DNA of 64,000 nucleotides from Escherichia coli phage Shin27, in sequence record LC788709.1; one strand, written 5' to 3'. The notes beneath the pieces were generated by a model. The model was not told where the DNA came from. It searched no databases and worked only from the letters and a program-made list of their open reading frames with translations. The position numbers were made by a program, and so were the translations under genes. Shown here piece by piece: positions 3,241 to 63,335 of this stretch. How positions within the stretch are numbered: the stretch's first letter is position 1; the number at the start of each line of letters is the position of its first letter.

Positions 3241-3662
3241 TATTGAGTTACTCCATCGCTGATGTATACTTTACCTTCCATAATACGGAAAGAATTGACT
3301 TCAGAGCCAATTACATCACGAGTCATTAGGATATCATAATAACCAGCAAAACGTTGTCTTGGGTTATACTTATCACGTTCTTTAGATGCTTTTTCACCAA
3401 TATTAGTAGTGTCTGCAATGGAAAGACTAATTGCAGCAGCACCTTGGGCAGCATCAATAATATGAGTTTTAAAATCAGCTAGAACCTCGGCGTTCTCATC
3501 TAAACTAGATTTAATAGTTCCTCGGAGTGAATATCCGGTTAAGTTAACAGGAACTTCTGTTGGTGGATATACACTGTCATCAACATCCATAAACTGCATG
3601 ATAAGACCATAAGGTACTTTCTCATCAACAACAATATCAATAACTCGGTTTTCTGTACTCAT
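3240..3662 (-). CDS. tail collar protein (T5 p132-like slot)
   Basis: 140-aa ORF between the side-fibre and central-fibre genes. Its stop abuts the start of the next gene. The name rests on recalled T5 gene order only. Confidence 0.55.
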
Positions 3663-3667
3663 TATAA

Positions 3668-5725
3668 TTACCTTATATGGATATACCCACTATTTAGGTC
3701 TATCTTCATCTTGTAGTATGCTTCAGGGTTCCCTGATAATGCAGCATTTCTATCGTAGATTATATTAACACCTATTTGTGATAAGAAGGCATTTCCTGCC
3801 ACAATCTTATCAGCAGTTACAGTTCCATTAACAATCATGTTGCCATGAAGAACCATTGCAGGGTTAATCCATCCAGCCCCGTTCCATTGACGGGTAAATG
3901 CTGTTTGTGGAGCATTACTGTTAAATTGTGTTAAGACATCGTATTTAACTGGAGGTTTTCCAAAGTTATTTTGGAAGAATGCATTAGCCTGTCCATCATC
4001 CCAACCACCTAATCCAGGAATACCCATGGAGTACATCCCAGGACCACGCTGTCCATCATGTCCTATAGTACCTTCAGTACCACTCCACTGAACCACATCA
4101 GACCAGCTAGTACCTTCGAGAAGTTTGTTAGTAACTGGATCAAGTGTACCCGTAGTAGCATAGATATTTTGTGTCATATCTGTACGATTAGGTGGAGTTT
4201 TTGACCAACCAGGAGGTGGATAATCTTGTTCTAGCGGTTTAGCTGGTAGAGATGTTGCTAACTTATAAACAAATACTGTTTGTTTACCCTGTAATCCAGT
4301 ACCAATATCTACGTCACCATTTGGTGTTCCAATTACTACACCACTAGAAATACGTAGGGTAGTACCATCATAACGTATCCATTGTGTAGCATTACCAATG
4401 TCTAATTTAGCTTTGGCAGAGGTATTATCCATGCCCATCCAAATACCAGAGTTATTATCTCCCCAAGATTTACCTTGAGTGTAAATTGCTGGATTATCTT
4501 TACCAGACAAGTTAGTCATAATAAAGTTTGCAGCATTAATATCTCTAGTGATTACTTTACCATCAACGTTAACAATACGGTTTATAGGGTCGAAAGAAAT
4601 AGGTGCTTTACCTTCTTCATCTAGCAGACCAATGTTAATAGCACCAGTAGCTGCATCAATTAGGAATGTTTGTCTCCAGATTTCCCCATCTTTCATGCTG
4701 CCTTTAATAAAGGCATAGTTAACATCAATACCCGTCTCATTGACAAAGCTGTTGTCTAGAGGAGTATCTTCATTCAGAATAAATGTTACAGGAACTGACT
4801 CTGTTATATCTTGTTTATTTGGTCCCCAGGCAATTGATGATACCTTAAAAGTATGTTCAACTTTCCATGGGAATGATATAATTGTTGCAGCTCTGGCAGC
4901 ACCCACGTTTATCTTTTGAGCTTTAGCCCATCCGGTTTTAGCATATTCCTCGGAGTTTATGTAAGTAACCAAAAACTCACGAACGTTAGCACCAGCACCA
5001 CGTTCCCAATCCCACTCAATTCTAACATCATATCGTTCTTTACCATCTGCAATTCGTGCAGCTTTAAAAACAATATCGATAGGTGCGGTAGGAGGAACAA
5101 AGTTATAAGCTACAGTTAGAATACTAGGGAATTCATAGTATCCAGAAGAATCAACTGTAACACCATCAGGCATAGTTACTTGACCAGATATTCTGATCTT
5201 ATAATCTCCGATAGGAACTCCACCAAATTTAATAGTAGAACCTAAAGCCCCAATGTAATATTTAGTCCATGGACTGTCTTCAGTGGCTGTACTTTTTAAC
5301 TCAATAGTACAGTAGCTTGCTTCACCAGTTGTTTCCACAACAACTATCGGTGAGCCCACCCCAACATCCACGGGTTCTGACTCAGATCTTGCTGCAACAA
5401 TTATTGGCTTCTCTTTTGTTTTAAAGTTAGTTTCATTAGAGAGGTTAATACCAATTTTTGCATTTAAAAGTTCTGAGTCAATAATTGAGTCATAAAAAGC
5501 TCCCTGAACCTGATAGGTAGTTGAGGGAGTTAAGTTATTGATCATAACAAAGAAAGTGTCGATTCCAGTGAAATCTCTTCTATCCACTTCTTCGCCAAGT
5601 TTAAGCCAAAATGATCTACCGATAACATCGTAGTCGGTATAGATAGAATGCTGGATATACGCCATAGTATATCCAGTCATAATACTATTTAAGACCATCT
5701 TGGCTGGTGCATTATTCGAAATCAT
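3668..5725 (-). CDS. central straight fibre protein (pb4-like)
   Basis: 685-aa beta-rich ORF directly downstream of the hub gene. Size and position match T5 pb4. Confidence 0.75.
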
Positions 5726-8575
5726 TTAAATAGATGCCCAATCCACAGATTGCTCGCCATTATCACCTTCTGCTCTTATACGGAAGCGTAACTTCCTATT
5801 AATACCTAGAGCATCCTCGTTATGAAGAGCATAGTCTGCCTTATTGTATATCAGTAGATAATCGTAGACATACTGATCTTCAATTCGTACACTTCTTAAT
5901 AAACGATCTAGGTTATCGTAGATTTCGAGAGTGTAGAAGATTCCATCAATAATATCTTCTTCTGGAATTCTATCCCAGGCCAACTTAACGTCTGGTCCTA
6001 CAAACTCCGATGCATCTCCTGAAGCTGTGTTAGTAACCCTGAAATTACTAACGACGCTTAAGTTTTTAGCAGAGTTAAGTTCTACCGATAGTGTTACAGG
6101 AGAACTTCGTCTACCATTAATATCTACAGCTCTAATCTCAAAGACTGCTAAACCAGCAGGTTCTCCAATAATTTCTTGGATCATTCGTAGATTTGGATTA
6201 GTTTCTAGTTGCTGTACTATATAAGGATCAGCATGCCCAGAGTGAACGATGGAGTAATAAACAACGTTATTAGTTAAGCTAGGAAGCCAAGATAGCTCAC
6301 CATTCTTACCAATAGATCCTACTTGTCCACCAGGTGTTGGTGTATACATAAAGTCTCTAGGAGGCAGTACGTTATTACTAACATCAGGAATATCATTACC
6401 ACTATTATCTACCTGTTCAGAGTTAATAAATACATCTTCTCCATACTCTTGTAGAGTAATATTAATCTTGCCTTCTCTTGAGTTCTCAACCTCATCTACT
6501 AGGAAGTATTTCTTATTCCACCCATAACGGTCATAAGTAAACGCTACTGGATCGTTGGGTTCAATACCAATGAAATGGTAAGGTAGAGAGAAAGATAGAG
6601 TTCGAGAGTAACGAGACTTTTTAAGTTCTCTATCAGCAAAACTACGTGCAGTGTAGTAGTTAGTAATGTTTGCAAAGGATAATTGCAGCTTTTTATCTAA
6701 TCCTTTATCCTGCTCTTTAAATATAGAGTTAAAGAATGTAATGGAGTTAGTTTTCCAGCTTAATGCGGGATCTAGTATAGAGGCTTGTACTGAGTTAAAC
6801 TTATTTCTACCAGTAGTATCTGATAGCTCCAGATCACCATAGGTATCTAAGAAGTCAATCTCTAATGGGGTGTTTGAGAACTTCTCAACAGTTATTCTAT
6901 ACTGTCCAGATAAGTTGTTGATAGCACCGCCATAAGACTCTATTAATCCCTGCACGTTTTTAAATACTGACTCAGAGGTATCGAGAATAGTATTCATTTG
7001 AACTATTTGTCTATTCTCTCCTACAGCATCAGTCCATCCAACGTATCTCCAGTAGGGCTGCCAAGAAACCTGATAGGATTCATCAATGATATCCAGGATA
7101 GCTGCTTCTTGAATAAGTTGCTGGAGAGGGAACTGATCAATAGTGATATTAGCACCGTAGCGGTCAGAGGTTAGGTAGTCCAGAGTTTGCCAGATACCAT
7201 TTAAGCTAGTCTTATCAGCAGTTACTCTACCATCTGAATGATAGATCTTAATCTTCTTACCTTGAACTTCAGCGCTAACTTCTGGAATTTCTGTTCTGTT
7301 TTCATTAATAGTAAAGCGAACAATAGCATAAGCAGTATCTAACAGTTTATAACGAGTGTCCCAGTATTCCGGTCCATTCTCATTCATGTTCTGTAGATAG
7401 AAACCTTTCTCTTTTGCAATGTTAACTAGAACATCAGCAGCAGATTGATCAGCCTTACCATGATAAGTCCAGATACGGATATCGCCATTACCATCATTAT
7501 ACTTATATTCCTGTCCATGAACAGAAGGTTCAGAGCTTGGTTGACCAGAAGCAATACGTTGCATGGTATCGCCAGCTACTTTCTTAGTACCAAAGCAAGT
7601 ACGAGACTTACTATCATTAGGATCAATACAGATCATTGGTACATCACCAAAGTAAAAATCTAGGAACCCATCAATCTCACCCTCACAGAAAGCGTATACT
7701 ACATATACGATATTAGGATTATGCAGTTCAGTATCTGCAAATACTGGGACTCCAGGAATTTTCTGAACTCCATATACTACTGGCAGGAATTTAGCAGCTA
7801 AGTTAAAATCAAGATCTACTTCCTTAGTTACAGTCTCATAGTATTTCTTTAGGCTATAGCTTCTAGAAAGACCAAATAACTTTTTCTTAGATTGTAACTT
7901 ATAACGTTCTTCCTGAACCTGATACTTAGCAAGAATAGAAATACTCTTGTTAGCATGAAAGAATCCGTAGTCCTCTTGATATTCAGGTCGTTTAGCACCA
8001 TTAGATGGAACTAATTGGCCAGCAACAATCTCAAGTCCCCTATGGTCAGCATCATCTGTGAAACGTCCGTTTACTCTATCAAAGTCATAGAATTGGTTTG
8101 AACAGTTCCATGTAATAACAGATGTACTAACTCCAGAAGTACCAATGTTATCCTTAATACCACCACCAGTGATTTTACCACGGAAGTAAAGTAAAGGACC
8201 ATTAGTATCTGGATCTACAGGAAGAATGTTACCTTCTTCATCAATAACCGCTTGATGGATTGAAATAGATCTATCTAGGAAGGATACACCATTTTGGACT
8301 AGTTTTAATACTTCATCCTCAGCAGTACCTGTGATAGTAAAAGAAAGGCTACCAATGGAAAGTTTTCTATTTTGTTTATGTGTTGTTATAGACTTAACTT
8401 TACCGGATGTGTAAAGAATACCATTATAAATTACATCCCTAAAATAGTCTGTAAGATAAATGTACGCAGAACTTGATCCGGTAGAGCTTGGCAATTCAAG
8501 AGTAATAAGGCATGCAGTTTTTATTTTATTATTGGTTCTTAGATACTCTCTTGCACTGTCAAGAATTTTCTTCAT
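5726..8575 (-). CDS. baseplate hub protein (pb3-like)
   Basis: 949-aa ORF between the pb9-like and pb4-like genes, with a 4-nt overlap with the upstream gene. Size and order are as in T5. Confidence 0.8.
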   Translation of the reverse strand: MKKILDSAREYLRTNNKIKTACLITLELPSSTGSSSAYIYLTDYFRDVIYNGILYTSGKVKSITTHKQNRKLSIGSLSFTITGTAEDEVLKLVQNGVSFLDRSISIHQAVIDEEGNILPVDPDTNGPLLYFRGKITGGGIKDNIGTSGVSTSVITWNCSNQFYDFDRVNGRFTDDADHRGLEIVAGQLVPSNGAKRPEYQEDYGFFHANKSISILAKYQVQEERYKLQSKKKLFGLSRSYSLKKYYETVTKEVDLDFNLAAKFLPVVYGVQKIPGVPVFADTELHNPNIVYVVYAFCEGEIDGFLDFYFGDVPMICIDPNDSKSRTCFGTKKVAGDTMQRIASGQPSSEPSVHGQEYKYNDGNGDIRIWTYHGKADQSAADVLVNIAKEKGFYLQNMNENGPEYWDTRYKLLDTAYAIVRFTINENRTEIPEVSAEVQGKKIKIYHSDGRVTADKTSLNGIWQTLDYLTSDRYGANITIDQFPLQQLIQEAAILDIIDESYQVSWQPYWRYVGWTDAVGENRQIVQMNTILDTSESVFKNVQGLIESYGGAINNLSGQYRITVEKFSNTPLEIDFLDTYGDLELSDTTGRNKFNSVQASILDPALSWKTNSITFFNSIFKEQDKGLDKKLQLSFANITNYYTARSFADRELKKSRYSRTLSFSLPYHFIGIEPNDPVAFTYDRYGWNKKYFLVDEVENSREGKINITLQEYGEDVFINSEQVDNSGNDIPDVSNNVLPPRDFMYTPTPGGQVGSIGKNGELSWLPSLTNNVVYYSIVHSGHADPYIVQQLETNPNLRMIQEIIGEPAGLAVFEIRAVDINGRRSSPVTLSVELNSAKNLSVVSNFRVTNTASGDASEFVGPDVKLAWDRIPEEDIIDGIFYTLEIYDNLDRLLRSVRIEDQYVYDYLLIYNKADYALHNEDALGINRKLRFRIRAEGDNGEQSVDWASI

Positions 8576-9294: not shown

Positions 9295-12200
9295 TTAAGA
9301 ATTACCAAGTGATTTCAGGGTGGTTCCATTCTCATTAAGAGCCTGTTCTACGGCATCCCTGAAAGCAGCACTGTTGCTCGAAGCAAAGTCTCGGAAGCTA
9401 GCCGCATCCATCGTACTGATGTTCAGCACAATAGGTCTACCCGATGTACCCTTTGAAGATCCTTTGAGTTCATCAGTAGGAGTAGCCTTCATCGGAACCA
9501 TAGGAGTGATTACTTCGGTACCATGTTCACCCATCTGGTAACTAACTCCAGGATACATATTACCACCTTCTGCACGGGGTACGAAAGAGTTAGCATTACC
9601 AATCCCTTGATCTCCTCGAATATAAGAAAGCTCACCTGCGTTAGCCGACATAGAAACGTCTACGTTCTTCTGGCGCTCTCCAAGAGTTAAGTAACCAGCT
9701 GTCTCAGCACCAGAGTCCCCAATAGAAGACATACCAGATGCAGAGGATGCTTGAGCAAGAGCCATAGCACCTGCTAAACCAGCCGCAACCATCAGAGGAA
9801 TAGAGAATGGATACGGAACAGCTGTTGCTGCCTGCATCACCGCTACTGCCGTCTGGATAATGATTTGCTTCTTAGCCGCATCTTGCTGGATCTTGAGCTT
9901 TTCAGCCTCTAACTTCTTGATCTTAGCTTTAGATTGCTCAGATTTACCATCACGTTTCTGTTCTGCTGCAATAGCTGCATCAATAGCACTTACCTGTTGA
10001 CCAACACTATACTGAATCATTGAAGATACAGTTTGCATACCAGCCGCTACTAGAGAAGTGGTATCCAGAGATCCTTGTGAAAACTGGATCATAGCATTAG
10101 TTAGGTTACCCATGCTTTGTGCTACAGCAGTTGCTTCGGAGTTCAGTTCAGACAGCTTAGAAATAGCCTGGTCATAGGATGCCATTCTATTCTGCATATC
10201 CATATTTGCTTTATCATCTCCTTCCAGTCCAGTTGTTGGAGTGTAAACACCACCAACAGAAGAAGTGACTTGCTGCTGCATCTGAGCATCACGTTGCATC
10301 TTAAGCTGTGCTAGAGCTGCCGAAGTTTCTTGGATTTTACGCTTATACTCTTCCTGAGCTTGTGCATTTCCTTTTGTAATTTCCAGTAAACTTTGGTACA
10401 GAGCTTGCTGTTCGGTTAGTCTCTGAGATTCCCCCGTAACGTTTCTGCTAGTCTGTGAAATATTAAGAGCTCTTTCACGTCCAGAAGCCATTTCCCTTTG
10501 CTGATCCTGACGGAATTTCCAGATTTCACGTTCAATTTGTGCCTGAGCTCGTCTTGATTGTTCAGCTTCCTTCTGCTTATCAATCTGCTTGGAGTACCAC
10601 ACATACTTCTCTTTCTCGATAGTCAGTTCAAGGTTCAACTGAGCTAAACGATATTGAGTATCTGTCATAGTACGGTTATTCAGGAGAGCAATTTCACGAT
10701 CAACACCAAGAATCTTATCGGTATAGTCCTTAACCTTCTTCTGAGCTTCCATACCCTGGTTAGTGATCTTGATACGTTCTAGCTGAATCTTAGCTATCTC
10801 ACCTTCGATTGCTTTGTTACCCTTGTTAGTTTCTAGGACACGCTTAAGAGCTGCTTCCTGTTCTTCTAACTGTTGGATTTCCAGACGTCTACCAGCTTCC
10901 TGTGCTTTCTCTTTGTCCTTAGTCTGGCTATACACTTCGGCAATCTTCTGCTGAACTTCTAGCTGATTCTTAGTCTCATTACCAGTTAATTTTACATAAC
11001 CAGCAAGAGCTTGTGAAGCAGTCTTCATCTCACTAAGAGTATTATACCCTAAGTTCAGGCTCTTAACATACTCATCAGCATTTTTACCAGTACCCGCGGA
11101 TAGAGACTCAATAGTCTTAATCGTATCTGATAAGGATGCACTAGTTTTAGCCGCAGTATTAGTATTCTGAGCGATGTTCTGGATATCGTTAGCTAAATCA
11201 CTAGCAGTTTTCTTAGCCTGATCATATGCTTTCTGCTGTTCTGTCAGTCCTTTCAGAGTTGCAGAGTTGAAGTCATAAACCGCATCAGGGTCATTTGCAT
11301 CTTTCTGTAGGTTAATTTGCTTCTGGAATTCTGGATTAGCCTTAGCAGCTGCAGCACCAGCAGCTTGGTATGCCGATTTCCATGCATTAAGATTGCCAGT
11401 TGAATCCTCTACTTCCTTATCAAGACGCTCTACCTGGAGAGCTAATGCAGCAGTATCTGCAATAAATTTCTGGTTTTCTTCAGAAGATCCTATGCGAACT
11501 CCTCCTACTTCAAAACCTCCTGCAGCTAACCCTACCGGTGCACCTTGAGCAACTAAACGAATAGCCCCTGCTGTAGATGCATCTGCTTGCTGCATACGCT
11601 TATCTAGATCAGCTTTTAACTTATTACGCTTTTCTAGAGATTCTTTGTACATATCAAGAGCTTTATTATATCCTTCCTCAGAAGCGGAAAGACTTAAAGC
11701 TACAGCACCAACGTTAGTTGGGTCAATCTGACGGTTAGTTTCTTCCTGTGCTCTAGCAGCAGAGGCCGAGATAGATGCTTGAGAAGTATAGAACACTGCG
11801 TTGATAGAATCAATTACTGGCCCTAAATACTTAGCAGCAGCCTGTTGAACCTTTCTCAGTGCAGCATCAGCATTAGCAGCAAACTGTTCCCAGGGGGTTG
11901 CACGAAGTACATCATCAAGATAGCCGAAACGTTTAGTAGATTCAGCGATAACTGCGTTAGCATATGCTTGTTGCTTCTGGAAAGTAGAGAGACTATTAAC
12001 GTTATATGTAATACCTGTGTTAGCAGCATTTAACTGTTTAACGTAGTCTGCGTAAGCATCGTTAAGACGAATAGTAACACCAAGTTCGTCCAGAAGTTCG
12101 ATTTCTTGTTTAGATACACCCTTGATTACACGGTTAAGTGCATCAGTCATATCAACACCAAGAACAGCAGCAGCACGACGAGCTACTAGACCAAATTTAT

Positions 12201-56820: not shown

Positions 56821-56896
56821 TGGTAGTTAGTAGTGGATTTGAACCACTGTAGTCGCTCCGTATGAAGGAGGTGCATAACCACTCTGCCAACTAACT
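56821..56896 (-). tRNA. tRNA, anticodon CAU (Met or Ile2 type)
   Basis: Acceptor AGTTAGT/ACTAACT, T-arm AGTGG-TTCAAAT-CCACT, anticodon loop TTCATAC, A73, CCA encoded. Confidence 0.7.
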
Positions 56897-56902
56897 ATAA
56901 TT

Positions 56903-56978
56903 TGGTACTCCGACTTGGGATCGAACCAAGATTTGACGATTATCGGTCGCCTGTTCTAACCGTTTGAACTATCGGAGC
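56903..56978 (-). tRNA. tRNA-Ile (GAU) with C at position 33
   Basis: Acceptor GCTCCGA/TCGGAGT, anticodon arm GGCGA-CCGATAA-TCGTC, T-arm CTTGG-TTCGATC-CCAAG, CCA encoded. Confidence 0.7.
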
Positions 56979-56979
56979 A

Positions 56980-57273
56980 TTACATCATTTCGTCTAAGTA
57001 AGAAGTATACTGGTATTTAGCTTCTCCAGTTTTATCTACTTCGACTTCTGTTCTAGGTACTTTTCGTACCAGACCGTGAATCATCTTGTACTGAATAGAC
57101 TTAGATGGTTCGTGATCTTTTGGAAATACTTGTTTAACCGTTACTACTTTGAAGCCTTCACGAGGTGTTAGCACAACAACTTGATCACCTTCTTTTATTT
57201 TCCAAGACTCAGGAAATTCGTAAGTGTAGCGTTGACCACCCGTTTGGAACACGACAGAAAGATAACGTTTCAT
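56980..57273 (-). CDS. hypothetical protein
   Basis: 97-aa ORF, the first gene behind the promoter at 57304-57332. tRNAs lie downstream. Confidence 0.55.
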   Translation of the reverse strand: MKRYLSVVFQTGGQRYTYEFPESWKIKEGDQVVVLTPREGFKVVTVKQVFPKDHEPSKSIQYKMIHGLVRKVPRTEVEVDKTGEAKYQYTSYLDEMM

Positions 57274-57303
57274 TTGGTTTCCCTCTCATTAATTTATGTA
57301 AAT

Positions 57304-57332
57304 ATTATAACAAGAAATAAGAGAGAAGGCAA
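57304..57332 (-). promoter_or_regulatory. T5 early-type sigma70 promoter
   Basis: TTGCCT, 17 nt, TATAAT, then leader ...AAATTAATGAGAGGGAA. Confidence 0.6.
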
Positions 57333-57347
57333 ATGAATTTTTAAATT

Positions 57348-57422
57348 TGGTGCTCCCACCAGGAATCGAACCCGGTTCAGATGCTTACAAGGCAACTGCA
57401 TCGCCAGCAATGCTTTAGGAGC
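57348..57422 (-). tRNA. tRNA-Thr (UGU)
   Basis: Acceptor GCTCCTA/TGGGAGC, loop CTTGTAA, T-arm CCGGG-TTCGATT-CCTGG, CCA encoded. Confidence 0.8.
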
Positions 57423-57589
57423 AATAAACCCGTTATTTCAACGGAATTTCTTTTTCAAATACAGGAGACTTATCAGACATTACTGTCATAGCCAACTGCT
57501 GTAGAAATTCGAATGAGAGTTTTAAACGTTCTTCACCCAACTCAACCTCAACACACTTCATTTGCTTATCAACCTTTAGCTTTAGATTA

Positions 57590-57811
57590 TCAGCCCTCTT
57601 CGGGTTCTCTTTGCTCAGCTATTGCTAGCCAGTCTGGTAAAAGAAACTTAGTACGAAATTCTTCATATGTTTCTTCTGGATGAAAGCTATAGCCTTGCTT
57701 TTCATCATTTAATAAAACCGAACCGTCTTCCTGTTCATAAGCTCGGTATGTTTCACCAATAATTAAAACTCGTCTATTGGGGTTTTTATTACGAAACTCA
57801 AAAACGTCCAT
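57590..57811 (-). CDS. hypothetical protein
   Basis: 73-aa ORF between tRNA genes. Confidence 0.5.
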   Translation of the reverse strand: MDVFEFRNKNPNRRVLIIGETYRAYEQEDGSVLLNDEKQGYSFHPEETYEEFRTKFLLPDWLAIAEQREPEEG

Positions 57812-57826
57812 AACGTTTCCTTAAGT

Positions 57827-57901
57827 TGGTGCGGGATACGAGAGTCGAACTCGTGTCTACTGGTTGGAAGCCAGTTATTCTAGCCACTGAACTAATCACG
57901 C
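57827..57901 (-). tRNA. tRNA-Gly (UCC)
   Basis: Acceptor GCGTGAT/ATCCCGC (one mismatch), arm ACTGG-CTTCCAA-CCAGT, T-arm ACGAG-TTCGACT-CTCGT, CCA encoded. Confidence 0.8.
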
Positions 57902-57907
57902 ATAAAT

Positions 57908-57983
57908 TGGCTGGAGAAGGAGGAATCGAACCTACCATTAACGGAGTCAAAGGCCGTTGTGCTAACCGTTACACTACTCTCCA
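57908..57983 (-). tRNA. tRNA-Gln (UUG)
   Basis: Acceptor TGGAGAG/TTCTCCA with U1-A72, G73, loop CTTTGAC, T-loop TTCGATT, CCA encoded. Confidence 0.8.
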
Positions 57984-57989
57984 AGTATT

Positions 57990-58065
57990 TGGCTGGGATG
58001 CCACGGATCGAACGTGGAACCTTCGGAGTCAGAGGCCGACGATCTGCCAATTGATCTACATCCCA
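57990..58065 (-). tRNA. tRNA-Gln (CUG)
   Basis: Acceptor TGGGATG/CATCCCA with U1-A72, G73, loop CTCTGAC, T-arm CCACG-TTCGATC-CGTGG, CCA encoded. Confidence 0.8.
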
Positions 58066-58072
58066 ATAATTT

Positions 58073-58273
58073 TTATTCTACAGGAACCGTGGCAATTGGA
58101 TCTGGTTCTTCTAGACGTTTACCATTATGGTCAACACGAATAATACCACAACCTTCACAGATTACAACAGCACCATAGCCTTCTTTAACTTCGGCTTCTG
58201 TAATCAGACCAGAAAGATCACCAGTATCTTTGCCCCACATATCGATAGAGCATTCTTTGCAGAAATCAGCCAT
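58073..58273 (-). CDS. zinc-ribbon protein
   Basis: 66-aa ORF with CKEC...CEGC, located between tRNA genes. Confidence 0.5.
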   Translation of the reverse strand: MADFCKECSIDMWGKDTGDLSGLITEAEVKEGYGAVVICEGCGIIRVDHNGKRLEEPDPIATVPVE

Positions 58274-58297
58274 ATTTTAGTTCCTGTATAAGTTAAT

Positions 58298-58372
58298 TGG
58301 TGCATCCTCAGGGAATCGAACCCCGATCGTAAAGTTCGTAGCTTTACATTCTTTCCGTTGAAATAAGGACGC
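58298..58372 (-). tRNA. tRNA-Arg (ACG)
   Basis: Acceptor GCGTCCT/AGGATGC, arm TAAAG-CTACGAA-CTTTA, T-arm CGGGG-TTCGATT-CCCTG, CCA encoded. Confidence 0.8.
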
Positions 58373-58377
58373 ATATT

Positions 58378-58454
58378 TGGGGTGGCTAGTGGAATTCGAA
58401 TCCACATAGGCCTGATTCACAATCAGGATCATTAACCAATTATGATATAGCCAC
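58378..58454 (-). tRNA. tRNA-His (GUG)
   Basis: Acceptor GTGGCTA/TAGCCAC, C73, arm CCTGA-TTGTGAA-TCAGG, T-arm GTGGA-TTCGAAT-TCCAC, CCA encoded. Confidence 0.8.
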
Positions 58455-58699
58455 AATTGAATACTATTAGGGGATGATCAGTCCTCCATTTGGCCGTCTA
58501 AGGTACCAAAGTTAGTCATTCTGCGCACAGGTTTTTCTCCTGATTCTTTATTGCGAATGCTCTCTAATAATACTCAATTGTGGCGGCTCTCCGAAACTCT
58601 TCTACTCTAGCCTTAGCAGCTTACTCCCGAACGCATGTCGGGAAAGTCTTACTAAGAACATCAAATAGCACCGTTACACTTTGAGCCATTAATGTATCA

Positions 58700-58830
58700 A
58701 GAAGCAGAAGGACTTGAACCTTCACGAGATAGACCATTTATCTCAGCCTCGTTTTCGGGTATCTTATGAGGAGTGGATGTTCCCCTTACGCCCTTTAGGA
58801 AGCCCCGTCTACCGATTCCGGCATACTTCA
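58700..58830 (-). ncRNA. oversized (~131 nt) tRNA-like element
   Basis: Canonical T-arm GAAGG-TTCAAGT-CCTTC is followed by TGCTTCT, which pairs 6/7 with TGAAGTA at the far end. A D-like CCG-GAATCGGTAGA-CGG is present. No CCA and no ORF. It lies 5 nt from tRNA-Ser. Confidence 0.3.
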
Positions 58831-58835
58831 AGATT

Positions 58836-58925
58836 TGGCAGAAGATAATGGAGTCGAACCATCACCGTATCACTACAGCGGGCCGGTTTTCAAGACCGGT
58901 TACGTACCACTACGTCCTATCTTCT
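58836..58925 (-). tRNA. tRNA-Ser (UGA), long variable arm
   Basis: 90 nt. Acceptor AGAAGAT/ATCTTCT, G73, arm CCGGT-CTTGAAA-ACCGG, T-arm GATGG-TTCGACT-CCATT, CCA encoded. Confidence 0.8.
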
Positions 58926-59152
58926 AGTATTTGTTCTACTTCTTTTCGAAGATCTTCTGGATTATCATGATAGGTTGTTTGCCATACATAAATAACTCCA
59001 GTATCACATGCTTTATCAAATATTTCTCGCTCAGGAAGTTTCATGCCCATTGCGTACTTGATATGAAACTCTAAAGCTTGCTTACTAGGGAATGTATGAC
59101 GCAAGAAAAACTTATCATTAACTAAATCCAACATCATAATCTTGACTTTCAT
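58910..59152 (-). CDS. hypothetical protein
   Basis: 80-aa ORF. Its last 16 nt overlap the 5' end of tRNA-Ser(UGA). Confidence 0.5.
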   Translation of the reverse strand: MKVKIMMLDLVNDKFFLRHTFPSKQALEFHIKYAMGMKLPEREIFDKACDTGVIYVWQTTYHDNPEDLRKEVEQILEDRT

Positions 59153-59173
59153 TTATATTCCCTATTAGTTGTT

Positions 59174-59266
59174 TGGCGGAAGAAGAGAGATTCGAACTCT
59201 CAAGCCTGCTTTAACAAGTCAGCCACTTTCCAAGCGGTTTTCGTCACCTAATCGATTTGCTCTTCC
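59174..59266 (-). tRNA. tRNA-Ser (GGA), long variable arm
   Basis: 93 nt. Acceptor GGAAGAG/TTCTTCC, G73, loop TTGGAAA, T-arm GAGAG-TTCGAAT-CTCTC, CCA encoded. The D-region register is uncertain. Confidence 0.6.
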
Positions 59267-59424
59267 GTAGATCTCAGGATTAAATCATAAACTTCATTAG
59301 CAGATACTGGAAGTATGAGATTATACATCTTTTGGTCATACCTCTGACCATACTCTATAAACACATACTCTTTAGTTAATGTATTAACAGCTAACCAGAT
59401 ATCAGTTATAGGAGTTTTCATCAT
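59248..59424 (-). CDS. possible small protein (58 aa)
   Basis: MMKTPITDIWLAVNTLTKEY... It is below the track cutoff. Its last 19 nt overlap the 5' end of tRNA-Ser(GGA). Confidence 0.3.
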   Translation of the reverse strand: MMKTPITDIWLAVNTLTKEYVFIEYGQRYDQKMYNLILPVSANEVYDLILRSTEEQID

Positions 59425-59440
59425 GAGTTAATCCAATGTT

Positions 59441-59521
59441 TGGTAGGGATGGAGGGACTCGAACCCACACCCGAAGACTAGAACCTAAATCTAGCGCGTC
59501 TGCCAATTTCGCCACATCCCC
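59441..59521 (-). tRNA. tRNA-Leu (UAG)
   Basis: 81 nt. Acceptor GGGGATG/CATCCCT, D region GCG-AAATTGGCAGA-CGC, arm CTAGA-TTTAGGT-TCTAG, T-loop TTCGAGT, CCA encoded. Confidence 0.75.
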
Positions 59522-59528
59522 ATTTTAT

Positions 59529-59747
59529 TTAGTTAGAAATAAATAGTAACCCTGCAACAATGGAACCTATGCCACTGAATACCATTATCAGCATAGCTTC
59601 TAAGCTGATAAAGCGGACGTTATATGGAGCGCCCCAAGAATAATCAGTAAAGAAAGTTTTCTTTTCTTTAGCTAAATCTTTAATAGTTCTAAAATAGATA
59701 GCTAGTGCTAAAGCTACAAGAACTACAGAGGCTGCTAAGAATACCAT
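59529..59747 (-). CDS. small membrane protein
   Basis: 72-aa ORF with two TM segments. Confidence 0.5.
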   Translation of the reverse strand: MVFLAASVVLVALALAIYFRTIKDLAKEKKTFFTDYSWGAPYNVRFISLEAMLIMVFSGIGSIVAGLLFISN

Positions 59748-59766
59748 ATTATTTCCTTAATTTGTT

Positions 59767-59842
59767 TGGTGGAGTCACTCAGAATTGAACTGAGTTCCAC
59801 TGCTTGCAAGGCAGTAAGTTTAACCAAATAACCTATGACCCC
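59767..59842 (-). tRNA. tRNA-Ala (UGC)
   Basis: Acceptor GGGGTCA/TGACTCC with G3-U70, A73, arm ACTGC-CTTGCAA-GCAGT, T-arm CTCAG-TTCAATT-CTGAG, CCA encoded. Confidence 0.8.
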
Positions 59843-59847
59843 GAATT

Positions 59848-59926
59848 TGGTGGAGAATAAGAGATTCGAACTCTTCTGATATCCTCGGTGCAAGCGAGGT
59901 GTCCACTCCAAGCAGACCCATTCCCC
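59848..59926 (-). tRNA. atypical tRNA, anticodon read as UGC (Ala-like)
   Basis: 79 nt. Acceptor GGGGAAT/ATTCTCC with G3-U70, arm CCTCG-CTTGCAC-CGAGG, T-arm AAGAG-TTCGAAT-CTCTT, CCA encoded. It has G at position 8, an enlarged D loop and a longer variable region. Confidence 0.5.
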
Positions 59927-59936
59927 AAAATCTTTA

Positions 59937-60152
59937 AGTTTACTAAGGCTATTAGCTCGGTGTGCGTATTACCCTCAGACATTAGCCAGTAGAGGATAAC
60001 CGCTCTTCACAAACCCGATACACTATTCAGTTGCCGCTGAATCTAGTGGACTAATCTAGAACTTATTGCAAAGTATCCCCCGCCATTAAGGGTCTACTTG
60101 CAATTGTGCTTTTTGGCAGCCAGTCCTAGGTCGAGCTAATACCTTAGTGAAC
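59937..60152 (-). ncRNA. structured leader/stable-RNA candidate downstream of an early promoter
   Basis: A 22-bp closing helix with one bulge forms between 59937-59959 and 60130-60152 and encloses ~170 nt containing at least three hairpins. No ORF. It lies between the promoter at 60189-60217 and two tRNAs. Confidence 0.3.
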
Positions 60153-60188
60153 TTTGATGAGGATTTCTCCTCATCAATTTATATAAAT

Positions 60189-60217
60189 ATTATAACAAGA
60201 AATTAAGCATCAAGCAA
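60189..60217 (-). promoter_or_regulatory. T5 early-type sigma70 promoter driving a non-coding leader plus tRNAs
   Basis: TTGCTT, 17 nt, TATAAT. The downstream leader starts with a perfect 9-bp hairpin, TGATGAGGA-GAAA-TCCTCATCA. Confidence 0.6.
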
Positions 60218-60569
60218 GTACATTTTTAGCGATTTCTTGTATTTCCTTAACGTCACTAACGAAAAGGTAATCAGAGCTTCCAGAGTGCATACTCTGCATA
60301 ACCACACCATCCTCTGGTGCATCTTCTTTCAAAGTAATACCTAACCAGAACTCGGCAAAACTAGGTGTTACCTCACCTTGACTTGCCTTGAATACATCGG
60401 CTTCTGTGATCTCCTGACCAGTAGAGAGTCCCATGTACGGTACGTTCAGATCAATATCTTTGTAAAACTCAGCTAGATCTTGTTCGAAGTCCCAACCTTT
60501 AGAGATAGCGAACTCCATTGTTACATGACCGAAATAGCCTTGAACCTTGCTTGATAATTGCATTTGCAA
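60210..60569 (-). CDS. hypothetical acidic protein
   Basis: 119-aa ORF between tRNA-Val and the promoter at 60189-60217. Confidence 0.55.
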   Translation of the reverse strand: MQMQLSSKVQGYFGHVTMEFAISKGWDFEQDLAEFYKDIDLNVPYMGLSTGQEITEADVFKASQGEVTPSFAEFWLGITLKEDAPEDGVVMQSMHSGSSDYLFVSDVKEIQEIAKNVLA

Positions 60570-60588
60570 TTCCTTATTTTGAGTTAAT

Positions 60589-60662
60589 TGGTACTCGGTG
60601 ATAGAATCGAACTATCGCAACCGCCGTGTAAAGACGGGGTTCTCCCATTAAACTAACCGAGC
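60589..60662 (-). tRNA. tRNA-Val (UAC)
   Basis: Acceptor GCTCGGT/ACCGAGT, arm CCGTC-TTTACAC-GGCGG, T-arm GATAG-TTCGATT-CTATC, CCA encoded. Confidence 0.8.
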
Positions 60663-60666
60663 AATT

Positions 60667-60744
60667 TGGTGGATTGCCTGGGATTCGAACCCAGAACTGA
60701 CGGATTAAAGGTCCGCTACTCTTATCCGGTTGAGCTAGCAATCC
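60667..60744 (-). tRNA. tRNA-Lys (UUU) with C at position 33
   Basis: Perfect acceptor GGATTGC/GCAATCC, arm GCGGA-CCTTTAA-TCCGT, T-arm CTGGG-TTCGAAT-CCCAG, CCA encoded. Confidence 0.75.
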
Positions 60745-61208
60745 AATTTTTCTACTAATAATTTAAAAGCATCTAGTACAGGTACTTCAAACCATTCCCC
60801 GGATACTCTGTAGTCTTTGAGAAGATTATGTAACTCTTTCTCCGTACGTCTTTTATCTGACGAAAATCTGAAATGGTGTAGCTTGTAGTCTCTATTAGGT
60901 GAATAGGTTTGATAACTTGCTAACCTCTCATTTACATCTATAGTCATACCTATTTTATACATGCCTGGCCATGCGGGATTACCGATTACATATACAAAAC
61001 CTTCCGTTATAGGTATTTTATGTTCTCTTTTGTATTTTAAGAGATTTAAAGCTGCCATTCGATAACAGAATTTAAATTCTGAAGTTTTTAACTTACCCTC
61101 TTTACCAGAAATTTCATTATATTTGCTCATATAAGCTCTTATAAGCTTATCATCTATAATAAAATTATCAGGAAGGTTTAAGGCAGCTAAAACTTTATTA
61201 ATTAGCAT
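60735..61208 (-). CDS. T5orf172/GIY-YIG-superfamily domain protein (homing-endonuclease-like)
   Basis: 157-aa ORF. GFVYVIGNP...YKIGMT..VNERLASYQT...EKELHNLL...GEWFEV matches the T5orf172 (MUG113-like) pattern. Confidence 0.7.
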   Translation of the reverse strand: MLINKVLAALNLPDNFIIDDKLIRAYMSKYNEISGKEGKLKTSEFKFCYRMAALNLLKYKREHKIPITEGFVYVIGNPAWPGMYKIGMTIDVNERLASYQTYSPNRDYKLHHFRFSSDKRRTEKELHNLLKDYRVSGEWFEVPVLDAFKLLVEKLDC

Positions 61209-61362
61209 AAACTTCCTTAATAGAGTAGACTTTCAAGTAAGGATGATTAATACCAAATTCCGCCATTACTTCATTTTCATCTTTACCATAATGGGCTAGT
61301 GGATACTTCTTACGATCTTTACTAGAACGTAAATCACTTACTTTTAAACGAAATAATTTCAT
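61198..61362 (-). CDS. possible small protein (54 aa)
   Basis: MKLFRLKVSDLRSSKDRKKY... Its 3' end overlaps the ATG of the T5orf172 gene. It is below the track cutoff. Confidence 0.3.
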   Translation of the reverse strand: MKLFRLKVSDLRSSKDRKKYPLAHYGKDENEVMAEFGINHPYLKVYSIKEVYAN

Positions 61363-61383
61363 TTCGAAATCCTTCTATTAAAT

Positions 61384-61461
61384 TGGAAGCGGGTGCAGGA
61401 ATCGAACCTACCTCTTTCTAGCTTATGAGACTAGCGATCTCTACCAGAGATCTAACCCGCA
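61384..61461 (-). tRNA. tRNA-Met type (CAU) with 1-72 mismatch
   Basis: Acceptor TGCGGGT/ACCCGCT, arm CTAGT-CTCATAA-GCTAG, T-arm GTAGG-TTCGATT-CCTGC. The 3' end reads TCCA. Confidence 0.65.
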
Positions 61462-61467
61462 ATTGTT

Positions 61468-61545
61468 TGGTCTCCGTGGGAGGATTTGAACCCCCGACCC
61501 TATCGCCCCAAACGAAACGCTCTGGCCAAACTGAGCTACACGGAG
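61468..61545 (-). tRNA. tRNA-Pro (UGG)
   Basis: Acceptor CTCCGTG/CACGGAG with C1-G72, loop TTTGGGG (G37), T-arm GGGGG-TTCAAAT-CCTCC, CCA encoded. Confidence 0.8.
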
Positions 61546-61577
61546 AATATTCTTTGTTAACTCACTTTATAAAATAT

Positions 61578-61606
61578 ATTATACAGAGAATTAAGCTAAA
61601 TAGCAA
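61578..61606 (-). promoter_or_regulatory. T5 early-type sigma70 promoter directly upstream of tRNA-Pro/tRNA-Met
   Basis: TTGCTA, 17 nt, TATAAT. The tRNA-Pro 5' end lies ~26 nt downstream of the predicted start. Confidence 0.65.
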
Positions 61607-61623
61607 CTACATTTTTTAATAAA

Positions 61624-61745
61624 TTTACTTATTGCGTAGGCCACCTGGAGGGTTCAAGCCCCACGGCTGACAAAGAAGTTTGCGAGACTTCTCTTAAACG
61701 CCAGAATAGACCCGCCGATCTATCGGAACCTACTCAATAAGTAAA
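61624..61745. ncRNA. structured ORF-free element closed by a 17-bp helix
   Basis: TTTACTTATTGCGTAGG (61624-61640) pairs 16/17 with CCTACTCAATAAGTAAA (61729-61745). Inside are a 6-bp stem with a 7-nt loop (AGAAGT-TTGCGAG-ACTTCT) and a GGTTCAAGCC T-loop-like motif. Confidence 0.3.
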
Positions 61746-61860
61746 CTTTCGTTTACCTACACCTACCTGGTCGGGAGGATTTTCAGCGACTAGAACCGGC
61801 CGGAAACTCATCGCCTTGTTTATCTAGGAGTCCGTTCTCTAGGAAGCAGAAACCTAAATT

Positions 61861-61934
61861 TGGTGCGGTCGGAGGGAATCGAACCCTCAACTTCTGGTTG
61901 GCAACCAAAAATTATACCTTTTAACTACGAACGC
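61861..61934 (-). tRNA. tRNA-Gly (GCC)
   Basis: Acceptor GCGTTCG/CGACCGC (one mismatch), arm TTTGG-TTGCCAA-CCAGA, T-arm GAGGG-TTCGATT-CCCTC, CCA encoded. Confidence 0.75.
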
Positions 61935-61943
61935 ATAATAAGT

Positions 61944-62065
61944 CAATCTAGGCAGGACTTGAACCTGCTATCACTTGTGCGGATTTACGAGAACCATTCT
62001 TTCACTCGAATCGAACGAGCTTCTACCCTCGGCAAGCTGGTGTCCCCTCTCCACCACGCTAGAAT
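61944..62065 (-). ncRNA. oversized (~122 nt) tRNA-like element
   Basis: Canonical T-arm GCAGG-TTCAAGT-CCTGC is followed by CTAGATT, which pairs 6/7 with ATTCTAG at the far end. Internal hairpins are TGGTG-N9-CACCA and CTCG-TTCGATT-CGAG. No CCA and no credible ORF. Confidence 0.3.
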
Positions 62066-62147
62066 GATAATTAGTGCCTGCTCCTTTGAATCAAGAAGTC
62101 CACCCCGGACTTTGGGTCTTTGCAGTACATCACGCTGCTCTGATGTT

Positions 62148-62224
62148 TGGTACACCCACTAGGACTTGAACCTAGAACCTACCGCTTAAGAGGCGGTAGC
62201 TCTAACCAATTGAGCTATGGATGT
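62148..62224 (-). tRNA. tRNA-Lys (CUU)
   Basis: Acceptor ACATCCA/TGGGTGT, arm ACCGC-CTCTTAA-GCGGT, T-arm CTAGG-TTCAAGT-CCTAG, CCA encoded. Confidence 0.8.
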
Positions 62225-62230
62225 ATAATT

Positions 62231-62305
62231 TGGCGGTACTAAGGGTAATCGAAACCCTACCTCTCCCGTGACAGGGGAGTATCCTAACCGTTAGACTATA
62301 GTACC
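62231..62305 (-). tRNA. tRNA-Asp (GUC)
   Basis: Perfect acceptor GGTACTA/TAGTACC, G73, arm CTCCC-CTGTCAC-GGGAG, T-arm AGGGT-TTCGATT-ACCCT, CCA encoded. Confidence 0.85.
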
Positions 62306-62877
62306 TTTAACTTTTTAAGTTCTTTAGGATTGCCTCCTAAAGAAGTGTATCTTTTACGCAACCCATTATCTGAATAACTTAACTTTCTCCCTGCACCTGA
62401 CCAGCCTAGCTCTCTTACTGTAACCTCGATTATTTCTTTAGTTATAGAGATATCTTTTGGTTTATGTGAAGAGCACTCCTGACATTTTTCAGCTTTTAAA
62501 GAAATAGCTTTACCACAATCCTTACAACAATTATCATGGTTTAGTTTACTAAATCCTTTATCTTTTAAAGTCTTTTCTAGATGCTGCTCTTTTGTGAGCA
62601 CTTGTAAGTTATTAAGACCCCAATAAGTAATGTCTGTGTTAATATGGTCAACTTCTAGTTCAGAGTCTAGACTTGGTAATTTCTTAAATGCACATGCTAA
62701 AATCCTATGTACACCGGTATTTCTCTGTTGACCATTTTTATGGAGACGTATAGATAAGTATCCGTAATTACTGGTTATTTGGGTTAGTATTTTGTTTGAT
62801 TTGATACTAAATACTAACCCATCCAAACTTACTAAGTACTCCTCAAACCCTGGAATGGGTAAGGATATTCCGTGCAT
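62296..62877 (-). CDS. HNH homing endonuclease
   Basis: 193-aa ORF with an HNH region (HRILACAF...EVDHINTDITYWGLNNLQVLTKEQHLEKT) and a Cys4 region (CCKDCGK...CQEC). Confidence 0.75.
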   Translation of the reverse strand: MHGISLPIPGFEEYLVSLDGLVFSIKSNKILTQITSNYGYLSIRLHKNGQQRNTGVHRILACAFKKLPSLDSELEVDHINTDITYWGLNNLQVLTKEQHLEKTLKDKGFSKLNHDNCCKDCGKAISLKAEKCQECSSHKPKDISITKEIIEVTVRELGWSGAGRKLSYSDNGLRKRYTSLGGNPKELKKLKVL

Positions 62878-62880
62878 AAT

Positions 62881-63066
62881 TTACTCAGTTTTGAGTTTTT
62901 CGATAGCTTCCTCAACCTCTTTTAGAGCTTCACGACGCTCTACTTGACCTTGAAGTTCTTCAAGAAGTTCAGCTTTCAGAGCCTTAATAATATTACCACG
63001 AACCTTAATATTATTAATCAGATTATCACGATCAGCTTCTAGTCGAGCAATTGCACGAGTTGTCAT
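62881..63066 (-). CDS. small coiled-coil protein
   Basis: 61-aa ORF, all helical with heptad character. Confidence 0.45.
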   Translation of the reverse strand: MTTRAIARLEADRDNLINNIKVRGNIIKALKAELLEELQGQVERREALKEVEEAIEKLKTE

Positions 63067-63169
63067 ATCTATTTCCTCAGTTGTTAATGAAAAATGGTAT
63101 CTGTGACTGAATTCGATATCAGCAATGATAGCTGGTTGGCTACCGGTTTACTTAACTCTACACAGAATA

Positions 63170-63252
63170 TGGCGGGCCGTGTAGGATTCGAACCTACGTT
63201 GTCTTTCGACATGGATTAACAGTCCACCGCCAAACCGCTTGGCTAACGACCC
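63170..63252 (-). tRNA. tRNA with Asn anticodon (GUU) and a 13-nt hairpin variable arm
   Basis: 83 nt. Acceptor GGGTCGT/ACGGCCC, D-stem GCCA/TGGC, arm GTGGA-CTGTTAA-TCCAT, variable GTC-GAAA-GAC-AAC, T-arm GTAGG-TTCGAAT-CCTAC, CCA encoded. Confidence 0.7.
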
Positions 63253-63259
63253 TAAAATT

Positions 63260-63335
63260 TGGACGACCGCATGAGATTCGAACTCACATAAGGAGGTTTT
63301 GCAGGCCTCCGCCTAAGCCATTCAGCCAACGGTCG
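63260..63335 (-). tRNA. tRNA-Cys (GCA)
   Basis: Acceptor CGACCGT/GCGGTCG, U73, loop CTGCAAA, T-arm GTGAG-TTCGAAT-CTCAT, CCA encoded. Confidence 0.8.

Follow-up and report, generated by a model that had tools for sequence, protein, structure and literature searches.

Cytidine at position 33 in tRNA-Lys(UUU) as well as tRNA-Ile(GAU) from the tRNA array of Escherichia coli phage Shin27, its recurrence among phage tRNAs and its possible meaning

The stretch of DNA analysed here, 64,000 nucleotides of Escherichia coli phage Shin27 (LC788709.1; hereafter the window), carries a large array of tRNA genes and interspersed small open reading frames (ORFs). Two of its tRNAs, tRNA-Lys(UUU) and tRNA-Ile(GAU), have C instead of the nearly invariant U at position 33, the U-turn nucleotide of the anticodon loop. 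The array, which possibly runs on past the window end, and the lysine and isoleucine genes considered first are as follows.

56821..63335, minus strand (all genes): tRNA gene array, 21 tRNAs and interspersed small ORFs (ARAGORN).
60667..60744, minus strand: tRNA-Lys(UUU), 'allele A', GCGGA-CCUUUAA-UCCGU, CCA encoded (ARAGORN, Rfam and sequence).
56903..56978, minus strand: tRNA-Ile(GAU), 'type 1', GGCGA-CCGAUAA-UCGUC, CCA encoded (ARAGORN, Rfam and sequence).
62148..62224, minus strand: second lysine tRNA, tRNA-Lys(CUU), loop CUCUUAA, U33.

Both C33 genes form a 5-bp anticodon stem and a 7-nt loop, and the stem-loops extracted from the ARAGORN genes agree exactly with the loops CCUUUAA (Lys) and CCGAUAA (Ile) and the stems given in the initial annotation of this DNA. 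On the plus strand C33 reads as G, at 60710 for Lys and at 56945 for Ile. A cmscan search with Rfam RF00005 aligned the two genes end to end with 59.9 bits (Lys) and 58.9 bits (Ile) against a gathering score of 29, as for canonical elongator tRNAs, from which both genes depart at U33. In both alignments the C sits under the consensus U33 with a posterior probability of '*' over the whole loop, and the covariance model offered no alternative register or fold with U at position 33 for either gene, an outcome that the initial annotation had allowed for as a way in which it might be wrong. The placement of C33 is hence unambiguous. The remaining 19 tRNAs of the array have U33 (the earlier figure of 20 presupposed 22 tRNAs, one more than ARAGORN finds), including tRNA-Lys(CUU), so that among the lysine tRNAs of the window C33 is specific to the UUU isoacceptor.

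The E. coli loops given for comparison in the initial annotation, CUUUUAA (Lys) and CUGAUAA (Ile), proved correct when host sequences were checked, and C33 is absent from these host tRNAs. The E. coli tRNA-Lys stem-loop is GUUGA-CUUUUAA-UCAAU (supplement of PMC11555353), and that of tRNA-Ile(GAU) is CACCC-CUGAUAA-GGGUG; of 5426 complete genomes, 5408 contain it at 100% under the annotation tRNA-Ile. E. coli genomes contain no homologue of the window Lys gene. C33 copies that are identical or differ by 1 nt come from about 100 independent phage records for Lys and about 160 for Ile, and the sole common departure from the window Lys gene concerns the D-loop and leaves position 33 untouched. When U was substituted artificially at position 33 of either allele, the resulting sequence had zero 100% matches in 50,697 phage records, a lack of revertants that is statistically weak because most copies of the C33 alleles are near-identical.

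E. coli phage Wa28 (LC788710.1) matches the tRNA region at 99.9% identity, and homology extends to 647 phage records, which come almost entirely from T5-like Demerecviridae. Syntenic arrays of T5, SP15, SPC35, Eps7, phiR2-01, saus132, Sepoy, EscoHU1, BF23 and one Sugarlandvirus (Kpn_3) were run through ARAGORN. Array positions in these phages are filled by alternative, quite different tRNA versions (alleles), with at least five for Lys(UUU).

Lys allele A: GCGGA-CCUUUAA-UCCGU, C33; window, Eps7, phiR2-01, BF23.
Lys allele B: CUGGU-CUUUUAA-ACCAU, U33; T5.
Lys allele C: (U/C)CCGA-CUUUUAA-UCGGA, U33; SPC35, SP15, Kpn_3.
Lys allele D: CCCGG-CUUUUAA-CCGGA; saus132, Sepoy.
Lys allele E: CCGAG-CUUUUAC-CUCGU; EscoHU1.
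Ile(GAU) type 1: C33; window, EscoHU1, saus132, Sepoy, Sugarlandvirus Kpn_3.
Ile(GAU) type 2: unrelated body, U33; T5, SP15, SPC35, Eps7, BF23.
Ile(GAU) type 3: C33 on yet another body; phiR2-01.

Among the 647 related records, about 109 hold Lys allele A (at 90% identity or more) and about 200 hold Ile type 1 (at 80% or more). The two C33 alleles assort independently, Eps7 combining Lys C33 with Ile U33 and Sepoy showing the reverse. The comparison with T5-like orthologues proposed in the initial annotation thus gave a divided answer: C33 is kept where the same alleles are present, and beyond these phages, but T5, SP15 and SPC35 have U33 in both tRNAs. The C33 tRNA-Ile(GAU) of phiR2-01 (locus positions 10822-10895) has an odd T-loop, GGATCGTAACC instead of GGTTCGA..., and a short D-loop; the original record of this Yersinia phage labels several of its tRNAs pseudo-tRNAs.

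C33 in these isoacceptors is also found outside the T5-like phages. BLAST with the window Lys gene matches T4-like Aeromonas phages (Straboviridae) as well, and a 21-nt block, agtagcggaCCtttaatccgt, C33 included, is identical in the window gene and two Aeromonas phages, while the acceptor and T stems differ and overall identity is 79-80%. Of the 16-17 tRNAs per phage in avDM1 and ZHF, just two have a credible C33: Lys(UUU), whose stem-loop is identical to that of the window, and Ile(GAU), whose stem-loop is CUCGA-CCGAUAA-UCGAG; their tRNAs for Asn, Thr, Met, Ser(GCU) and Arg(UCU) have U33. Given that the Lys gene was found by homology, the chance of the second C33 tRNA being Ile(GAU) is about 1 in 16.

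The CCGAUAA loop of tRNA-Ile can be followed along a divergence series comprising the Epseptimaviruses S132 and 26175IV, Klebsiella phage Roth39, BIS47, Boggle_ER46, Erwinia phage KEY and the Brevundimonas jumbo phage Gurke, and the C33 Ile(GAU) family spans Demerecviridae, Vequintavirinae, Straboviridae and a Brevundimonas jumbo phage. Among 13 Ile(GAU) genes with a median pairwise identity of 68% (minimum 50%), in which 39 of 77 alignment columns vary, 12 have C33, which makes position 33 as conserved in this set as the universal tRNA invariants, although BLAST seeding on the stem-loop may inflate the apparent conservation in the most divergent matches. The phiR2-01, avDM1 and ZHF genes and the first of the BIS47 genes, however, came to light without use of their Ile sequence. 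Phage vB_KpnM_BIS47 (a Klebsiella myovirus of the Vequintavirinae) has two different Ile(GAU) genes, both with C33, together with a C33 Lys(CUU) (CCCUUAA), the three lying at 1014-1089, 4634-4709 and 6001-6076 of the extracted locus; its Lys(UUU) has U33.

A further C33 tRNA-Lys(UUU) belongs to a lambdoid prophage array of four tRNAs, Ile(CAU)/Lys(UUU)/Thr(UGU)/Gly(UCC), situated between the Q antiterminator and holin genes (for example E. coli S51, NZ_CP015995.1 2834346-2834655). Its stem-loop is UCAAC-CCUUUAA-GUUGA, the stem being strand-swapped with respect to the host tRNA, and the Prokaryotic Genome Annotation Pipeline annotates it as tRNA-Lys. The full array occurs in 603 of 5426 complete E. 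coli genomes (11%), and the prophage arrangement recurs at about 70 or more IMG/VR loci among the matches listed. The array includes Lys(UUU) and Thr(UGU), the two prime targets of the PARIS defence system.

Collectively our data confirm that C33 is a real, heritable part of phage tRNA alleles circulating among several phage families.

In IMG/VR, T-loop-anchored pattern scans for C33 loops followed by ARAGORN classification gave counts that are numerators only, and lower bounds. Among the matches listed there were at least 100 true C33 genes for Lys(UUU) (at least 37 distinct sequences, with many unrelated stems), at least 41 for Ile(GAU) (at least 41 distinct), at least 79 for Thr(UGU) (at least 59 distinct) and at least 102 for Asn(GUU) (at least 84 distinct). 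A denominator scan in which residue 33 of Lys(UUU) could be either C or U, over viral contigs and one genome per bacterial species, found true C33 in none of about 121 viral and none of about 131 bacterial genes among the matches listed. The single 'C' match in each collection was false, being CCTTTAA within the variable arm of a tRNA-Ser, and the C33 rate in Lys(UUU) is bounded below 1%. Among distinct tRNAs at unselected loci, C33 was present in 17 of 654 viral (2.6%) and 4 of 194 bacterial (2.1%) cases, and an enrichment in phages was not supported (p = 0.80, with a small bacterial sample); A33 and G33 were nearly absent.

Two of the four bacterial cases are chromosomal tRNA-Glu(UUC) genes in Sulfurimonas metagenome-assembled genomes (MAGs), at 3372-3447 and 6279-6354 of the two extracted loci, with the loop ACUUCAU (A32, C33); they belong to an ordinary operon of Lys-Val-Asp-Glu tRNAs and give the impression of genuine elongators with C33 of cellular origin. 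The other two, a tRNA-Cys(GCA) and a tRNA-Ser(GCU), lie in JANRKX010000072.1 (labelled an Acidobacteriota MAG), where 29 tRNA genes without encoded CCA are packed into 2.9 kb (locus positions 81-2905), which looks like a phage or mobile array in a bacterial bin.

At the viral background of 2.6% the probability of at least two C33 tRNAs among 21 is 0.10, as against 0.005 at a nominal 0.5%. Hence two C33 tRNAs in one phage array are uncommon, not extraordinary. A larger set of 2606 distinct bystander viral tRNAs from IMG/VR, biased and phylogenetically non-independent, shows C33 in 54% of Val(GAC), 43% of Val(CAC) and 12-18% of Glu(UUC/CUC) and Thr(GGU/CGU), and in 0% of Trp, Phe, Arg(ACG) and Gln(CUG). 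The differences between anticodons are strong (chi-square p of about 1e-19, from these non-independent data). In the viral sample C33 co-varies with C32 (78% vs 65%, odds ratio 1.9, p = 0.0015) and also with a G-C pair at 31-39. Four uncultivated IMG/VR phage contigs carry 7-10 C33 tRNAs among 20-33, over Val, Asp, Asn, Glu, Lys, Ser, Thr, Pro, Ala, Gly and Leu, so that C33 looks like an array-wide property in certain phages. Overall, C33 is a recurrent minority state of phage tRNAs, rare in Lys(UUU) as a whole and fixed in particular stem-loop families.

Evidence on decoding comes from the tRNA-Lys of BF23 (AJ604530.1), a 78-nt gene with one D-loop difference from the window gene and the identical C33 stem-loop. 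According to the depositors' annotation, a CUA anticodon swap turns this tRNA into an effective amber suppressor, which suggests that the C33 Lys body is processed, charged and efficiently used by E. coli ribosomes. The earlier suggestion that decoding is kept is therefore supported for the Lys allele, if indirectly, by the GenBank note on the BF23 allele, according to which C33 would be compatible with decoding. For the C33 Ile allele no comparable suppressor or translation evidence was found, and the suppressor note for T5 is about its type 2 gene, which has U33.

The idea that stem-loop changes let phage tRNAs evade anticodon nucleases is published and partly proven (PMC10264068, PMC11464382, PMC11555353). 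Both C33 tRNAs are phage isoacceptors of host nuclease targets: Lys(UUU) is cut by PrrC/RloC, by AriB of PARIS and by RorSlfn5, the last in the stem between positions 30 and 31, and Ile(GAU) is cut by Salmonella HepS, which cleaves Thr(GGU/UGU/CGU), Ile(GAU) and Ser(GCU). PrrC and RloC cut tRNA-Lys directly 3' of U33 (PMC2610378), and C33 thus changes the nucleotide that bears the attacking 2'-OH. To this extent the statement in the initial annotation that anticodon nucleases cut tRNA-Lys next to 33/34 is borne out; it does not extend to PARIS AriB, which cuts between 40 and 41, recognises U36AAUC/A41 and has no need of modifications (PMC11464382, PMC12409363). PARIS as the reason for C33 was rejected on account of this cut site. 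The host and phage stem-loops differ at both known sites, with C33 at the 33/34 junction of PrrC/RloC and C41 at the 40/41 junction of AriB. Cleavage by AriB is abolished by U39A (Mut1) and substantially inhibited by A41C (Mut2); the window Lys allele keeps U39 (UAAUCC) and has C41, that is, the weaker A41C-type change only.

Two neighbouring tRNAs of the window also bear on PARIS. In tRNA-Thr(UGU) (57348-57422) the sequence U36AAGCA has a G39 that breaks the UAAU motif read by AriB in the host tRNA, and in tRNA-Asn(GUU) (63170-63252) U36AAUC/C is kept. Judging from these motifs, the set of PARIS targets that the phage is able to replace may not be that of T5.

We tentatively favour, as one possible explanation, that C33 has been retained by selection for altered recognition by host enzymes of the anticodon loop, most plausibly nucleases acting at the 33/34 junction. 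In such a model the Lys and Ile C33 alleles would travel as interchangeable cassettes among phage tRNA arrays, and C33 would be a heritable part of a conserved 'phage-type' anticodon stem-loop kept by selection. Its likely role would be a changed handling by host proteins that read the 5' side of the loop, with decoding preserved, the prime candidates being, for Lys, nucleases like PrrC/RloC and, for Ile, a HEPN enzyme resembling HepS. We infer selection on C33 itself from its retention while the rest of the tRNA diverges, both in the Ile family and around the 21-nt Lys block, from the want of exact U33 versions in the 50,697 records set against about 100 and 160 with C33, and from the recurrence of C33 in the same two isoacceptors of the Aeromonas phages and, for Lys(UUU), on many unrelated bodies (the 37 or more IMG/VR sequences and the lambdoid prophage). 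A nuclease as the selective agent is suggested by the fact that both isoacceptors are documented targets in these hosts and that phage tRNA-Lys variants rescue phages from PARIS and PrrC170; that the Lys allele translates and its gene is without an E. coli homologue is also consistent with this. More doubtful is a stronger version, in which C33 would mark a horizontally spreading class of 'hardened' stem-loops (CGA-CCGAUAA-UCG for Ile, GCGGA-CCUUUAA-UCCGU for Lys) that go unseen by host enzymes reading U33, and so escape both the 33/34 nucleases and the enzyme that writes N6-threonylcarbamoyladenosine at A37 (t6A37), while still decoding.

A number of observations weigh against selection on C33. 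T5-like phages are polymorphic, since T5, SP15 and SPC35 have U33 in both tRNAs, and Klebsiella phage KP2025, the sole member of the Ile set with U33, has it on the same stem-loop. The statistics given above for revertants, for conservation in the most divergent Ile genes and for phage against bacterial frequencies detract from the case, as do the rarity of C33 in the Lys(UUU) denominator scan and its occurrence, among the bystanders, on many anticodons without a known nuclease. With regard to the nucleases themselves, the resistance of T5 to PARIS has been traced to U39A and A41C together with distal contacts, within a tRNA that has U33 (PMC11464382, PMC12409363), and the SP15 tRNA-Lys that rescues phages from PrrC170 (PMC11555353) has U33, so C33 is unnecessary for that escape. 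The single anticodon nuclease assayed on U33C, the yeast gamma-toxin of K. lactis, which cuts between 34 and 35, cleaved it as well as the wild type. In published work we found no resistance or cleavage data for C33 with PrrC, RloC, AriB or HepS. Neither T5 nor Bas30 triggers HepS, and T5-type tail tips fail to do so; HepS is therefore unlikely as the selective agent for the Ile allele of this phage, and proves only that nucleases cutting Ile(GAU) exist.

Many of these same observations would be expected if C33 were a near-neutral, tolerated variant, an explanation that we consider somewhat unlikely but a serious alternative. On this account C would be the least harmful substitute for U33, arising by common U-to-C transitions in auxiliary, weakly constrained phage tRNAs and riding in recombining cassettes without a function of its own. 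The similar frequencies in unselected viral and bacterial tRNAs, the scatter of C33 over many anticodons with no tie to any class, the polymorphism and independent assortment seen in the T5-like phages (Eps7, Sepoy), the U33 of KP2025, the probability of 0.10 for two among 21 and the good translation obtained with a C33 body all fit this account, and the near absence of A33 and G33 is what would be seen if only the mildest change were tolerated. It accounts less well for a position 33 conserved like the universal invariants across the Ile family and in the Lys genes of two phage families, for C33 in the same two isoacceptors of unrelated phages, or for the strong dependence on the anticodon (with the non-independence noted above); furthermore, two of the four 'bacterial' cases come from the phage-like array of 29 tRNAs. 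Should C33 prove neutral, this too would be informative: textbooks would then overstate how inviolable U33 is in tRNAs of phages and of some bacteria, and a difference between phage and host anticodon loops would not by itself be a reason to read it as an anti-defence adaptation.

Unlikely, but likewise a serious alternative and one with direct biochemical backing, is that C33 serves to avoid modification, as an anti-determinant for the E. coli TsaBCDE enzymes that leaves A37 without t6A and thereby alters decoding or the recognition by modification-dependent nucleases. Wang et al. (PMC8887486) report that neither reconstituted E. coli TsaBCDE nor yeast KEOPS forms t6A once U33 is changed to C, and they describe C33 as an anti-determinant in bacteria and yeast. 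The E. coli result was obtained with a single, non-native substrate, tRNA-fMet, and t6A is a positive determinant for the charging of human tRNA-Ile, so its loss could be costly (PMC8887486). Both window tRNAs read ANN codons with a loop of the form CC-NNU-AA, in which the t6A determinants C32, U36, A37 and A38 are present and U33 is not, and both are accordingly predicted to escape t6A37. As PrrC recognition depends partly on base modifications, t6A avoidance and nuclease escape could be linked; AriB, however, needs none. A general rule for ANN decoders (the t6A class), to which the Thr(UGU) and Asn(GUU) scans had seemed to point, was rejected, because C33 is not enriched in them among the 2606 bystanders (39 of 871, or 4.5%, vs 107 of 1735, or 6.2%) and both the window and the Aeromonas phages have further ANN decoders with U33. 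Loss of t6A is thus retained only as a possible consequence for these two tRNAs, and the BF23 suppressor result is silent on the status of A37.

It is very unlikely that C33 tunes decoding, by altering the geometry of the U-turn and with it the speed, wobble range or frame maintenance on the frequent weak AAA/AAG and AUU/AUC codons of an AT-rich phage. Both tRNAs do read A/U-rich codons, the mild covariation with C32 and that with a 31-39 G-C pair hint at a structural context, and initiator tRNAs of multicellular eukaryotes naturally have C33 (PMC8887486), but C33 is also found on tRNAs for G/C-rich codons (Val GAC, Glu CUC, Thr GGU) and T5 manages with U33 in both tRNAs. An artefact, be it a sequencing error, a pseudogene or a mis-folded prediction, has a practically negligible chance in view of the high model scores, the encoded CCA, C33 in about 100-160 independently sequenced phages and the functional suppressor annotation of the BF23 allele, and nothing was found in its favour.

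Returning to selection by anticodon-loop enzymes, one of the closest known systems is the tRNA-Lys(UUU) with which T5 neutralises PARIS (Burman et al. 2024, PMC11464382; PMC12409363, 2025). It shares with the window gene the array position, a stem-loop unlike that of the host and a host counterpart that a defence nuclease targets, but it has U33 (CUGGU-CUUUUAA-ACCAU), owes its resistance to the changes described above and is only 73% identical. The tRNA-Lys of SP15 (Azam et al. 2024, PMC11555353) is likewise a T5-like Lys(UUU) that counters a nuclease cutting between 33 and 34, PrrC170, and it rescues T1 and T7; its stem-loop, UCCGA-CUUUUAA-UCGGA, again has U33, and its protection is independent of position 33. 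Differences between phage and host at cleavage and recognition sites of the anticodon loop were the basis on which nuclease-insensitive phage tRNAs were predicted by van den Berg et al. (2023, eLife, PMC10264068). In their table, however, coliphage tRNA-Lys is entered with 'No mutation' for the junction cut by PrrC/RloC (CU-UUUAA); repair by RNA ligase is invoked instead, and position 33 goes unmentioned; the C33 alleles are a case missed by that study. The BF23 tRNA-Lys is the same allele as that of the window, with no difference of substance, and its record is silent on C33. A natural, functional C33 is known from the cytoplasmic initiator tRNA-Met of multicellular eukaryotes (CCCAUAA), also an ANN decoder with C32, U36, A37 and A38; unlike the phage tRNAs it is an initiator and not an elongator, and its t6A machinery has co-evolved to accept C33, which the bacterial enzyme reportedly does not (PMC8887486).

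The concept of escape is hence already known, and the allele itself entered GenBank with the BF23 tRNA region. Its C33 appears undescribed, as do the repeated occurrence of C33 in the same isoacceptors of different phage families and its place at the PrrC/RloC junction; we found no explicit description of C33 or of position 33 in phage tRNAs in the papers examined. Phage tRNA arrays have recently been recognised as countermeasures to tRNA-cleaving immunity (PARIS, PrrC and retron Eco7), and the protection known so far comes from changes in the anticodon stem or from the level of expression. If true, escape by a conserved change of U33, which sits at the cut site of PrrC/RloC, would involve a different and easily recognised kind of mutation. 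Position 33 would then be a previously unrecognised battleground of phage tRNAs and host defences, and C33 a simple sequence signature for predicting nuclease-resistant phage tRNAs. As a natural experiment, C33 would also show to what extent bacterial translation and t6A37 synthesis can do without U33.

One further gene of the window array stands apart. The second of two adjacent tRNA-Ala(UGC) genes (59848-59926, 79 nt) is called by ARAGORN and falls below the Rfam gathering score, which explains the 20 Rfam hits as against 21 ARAGORN genes; it may be aberrant or tRNA-like.

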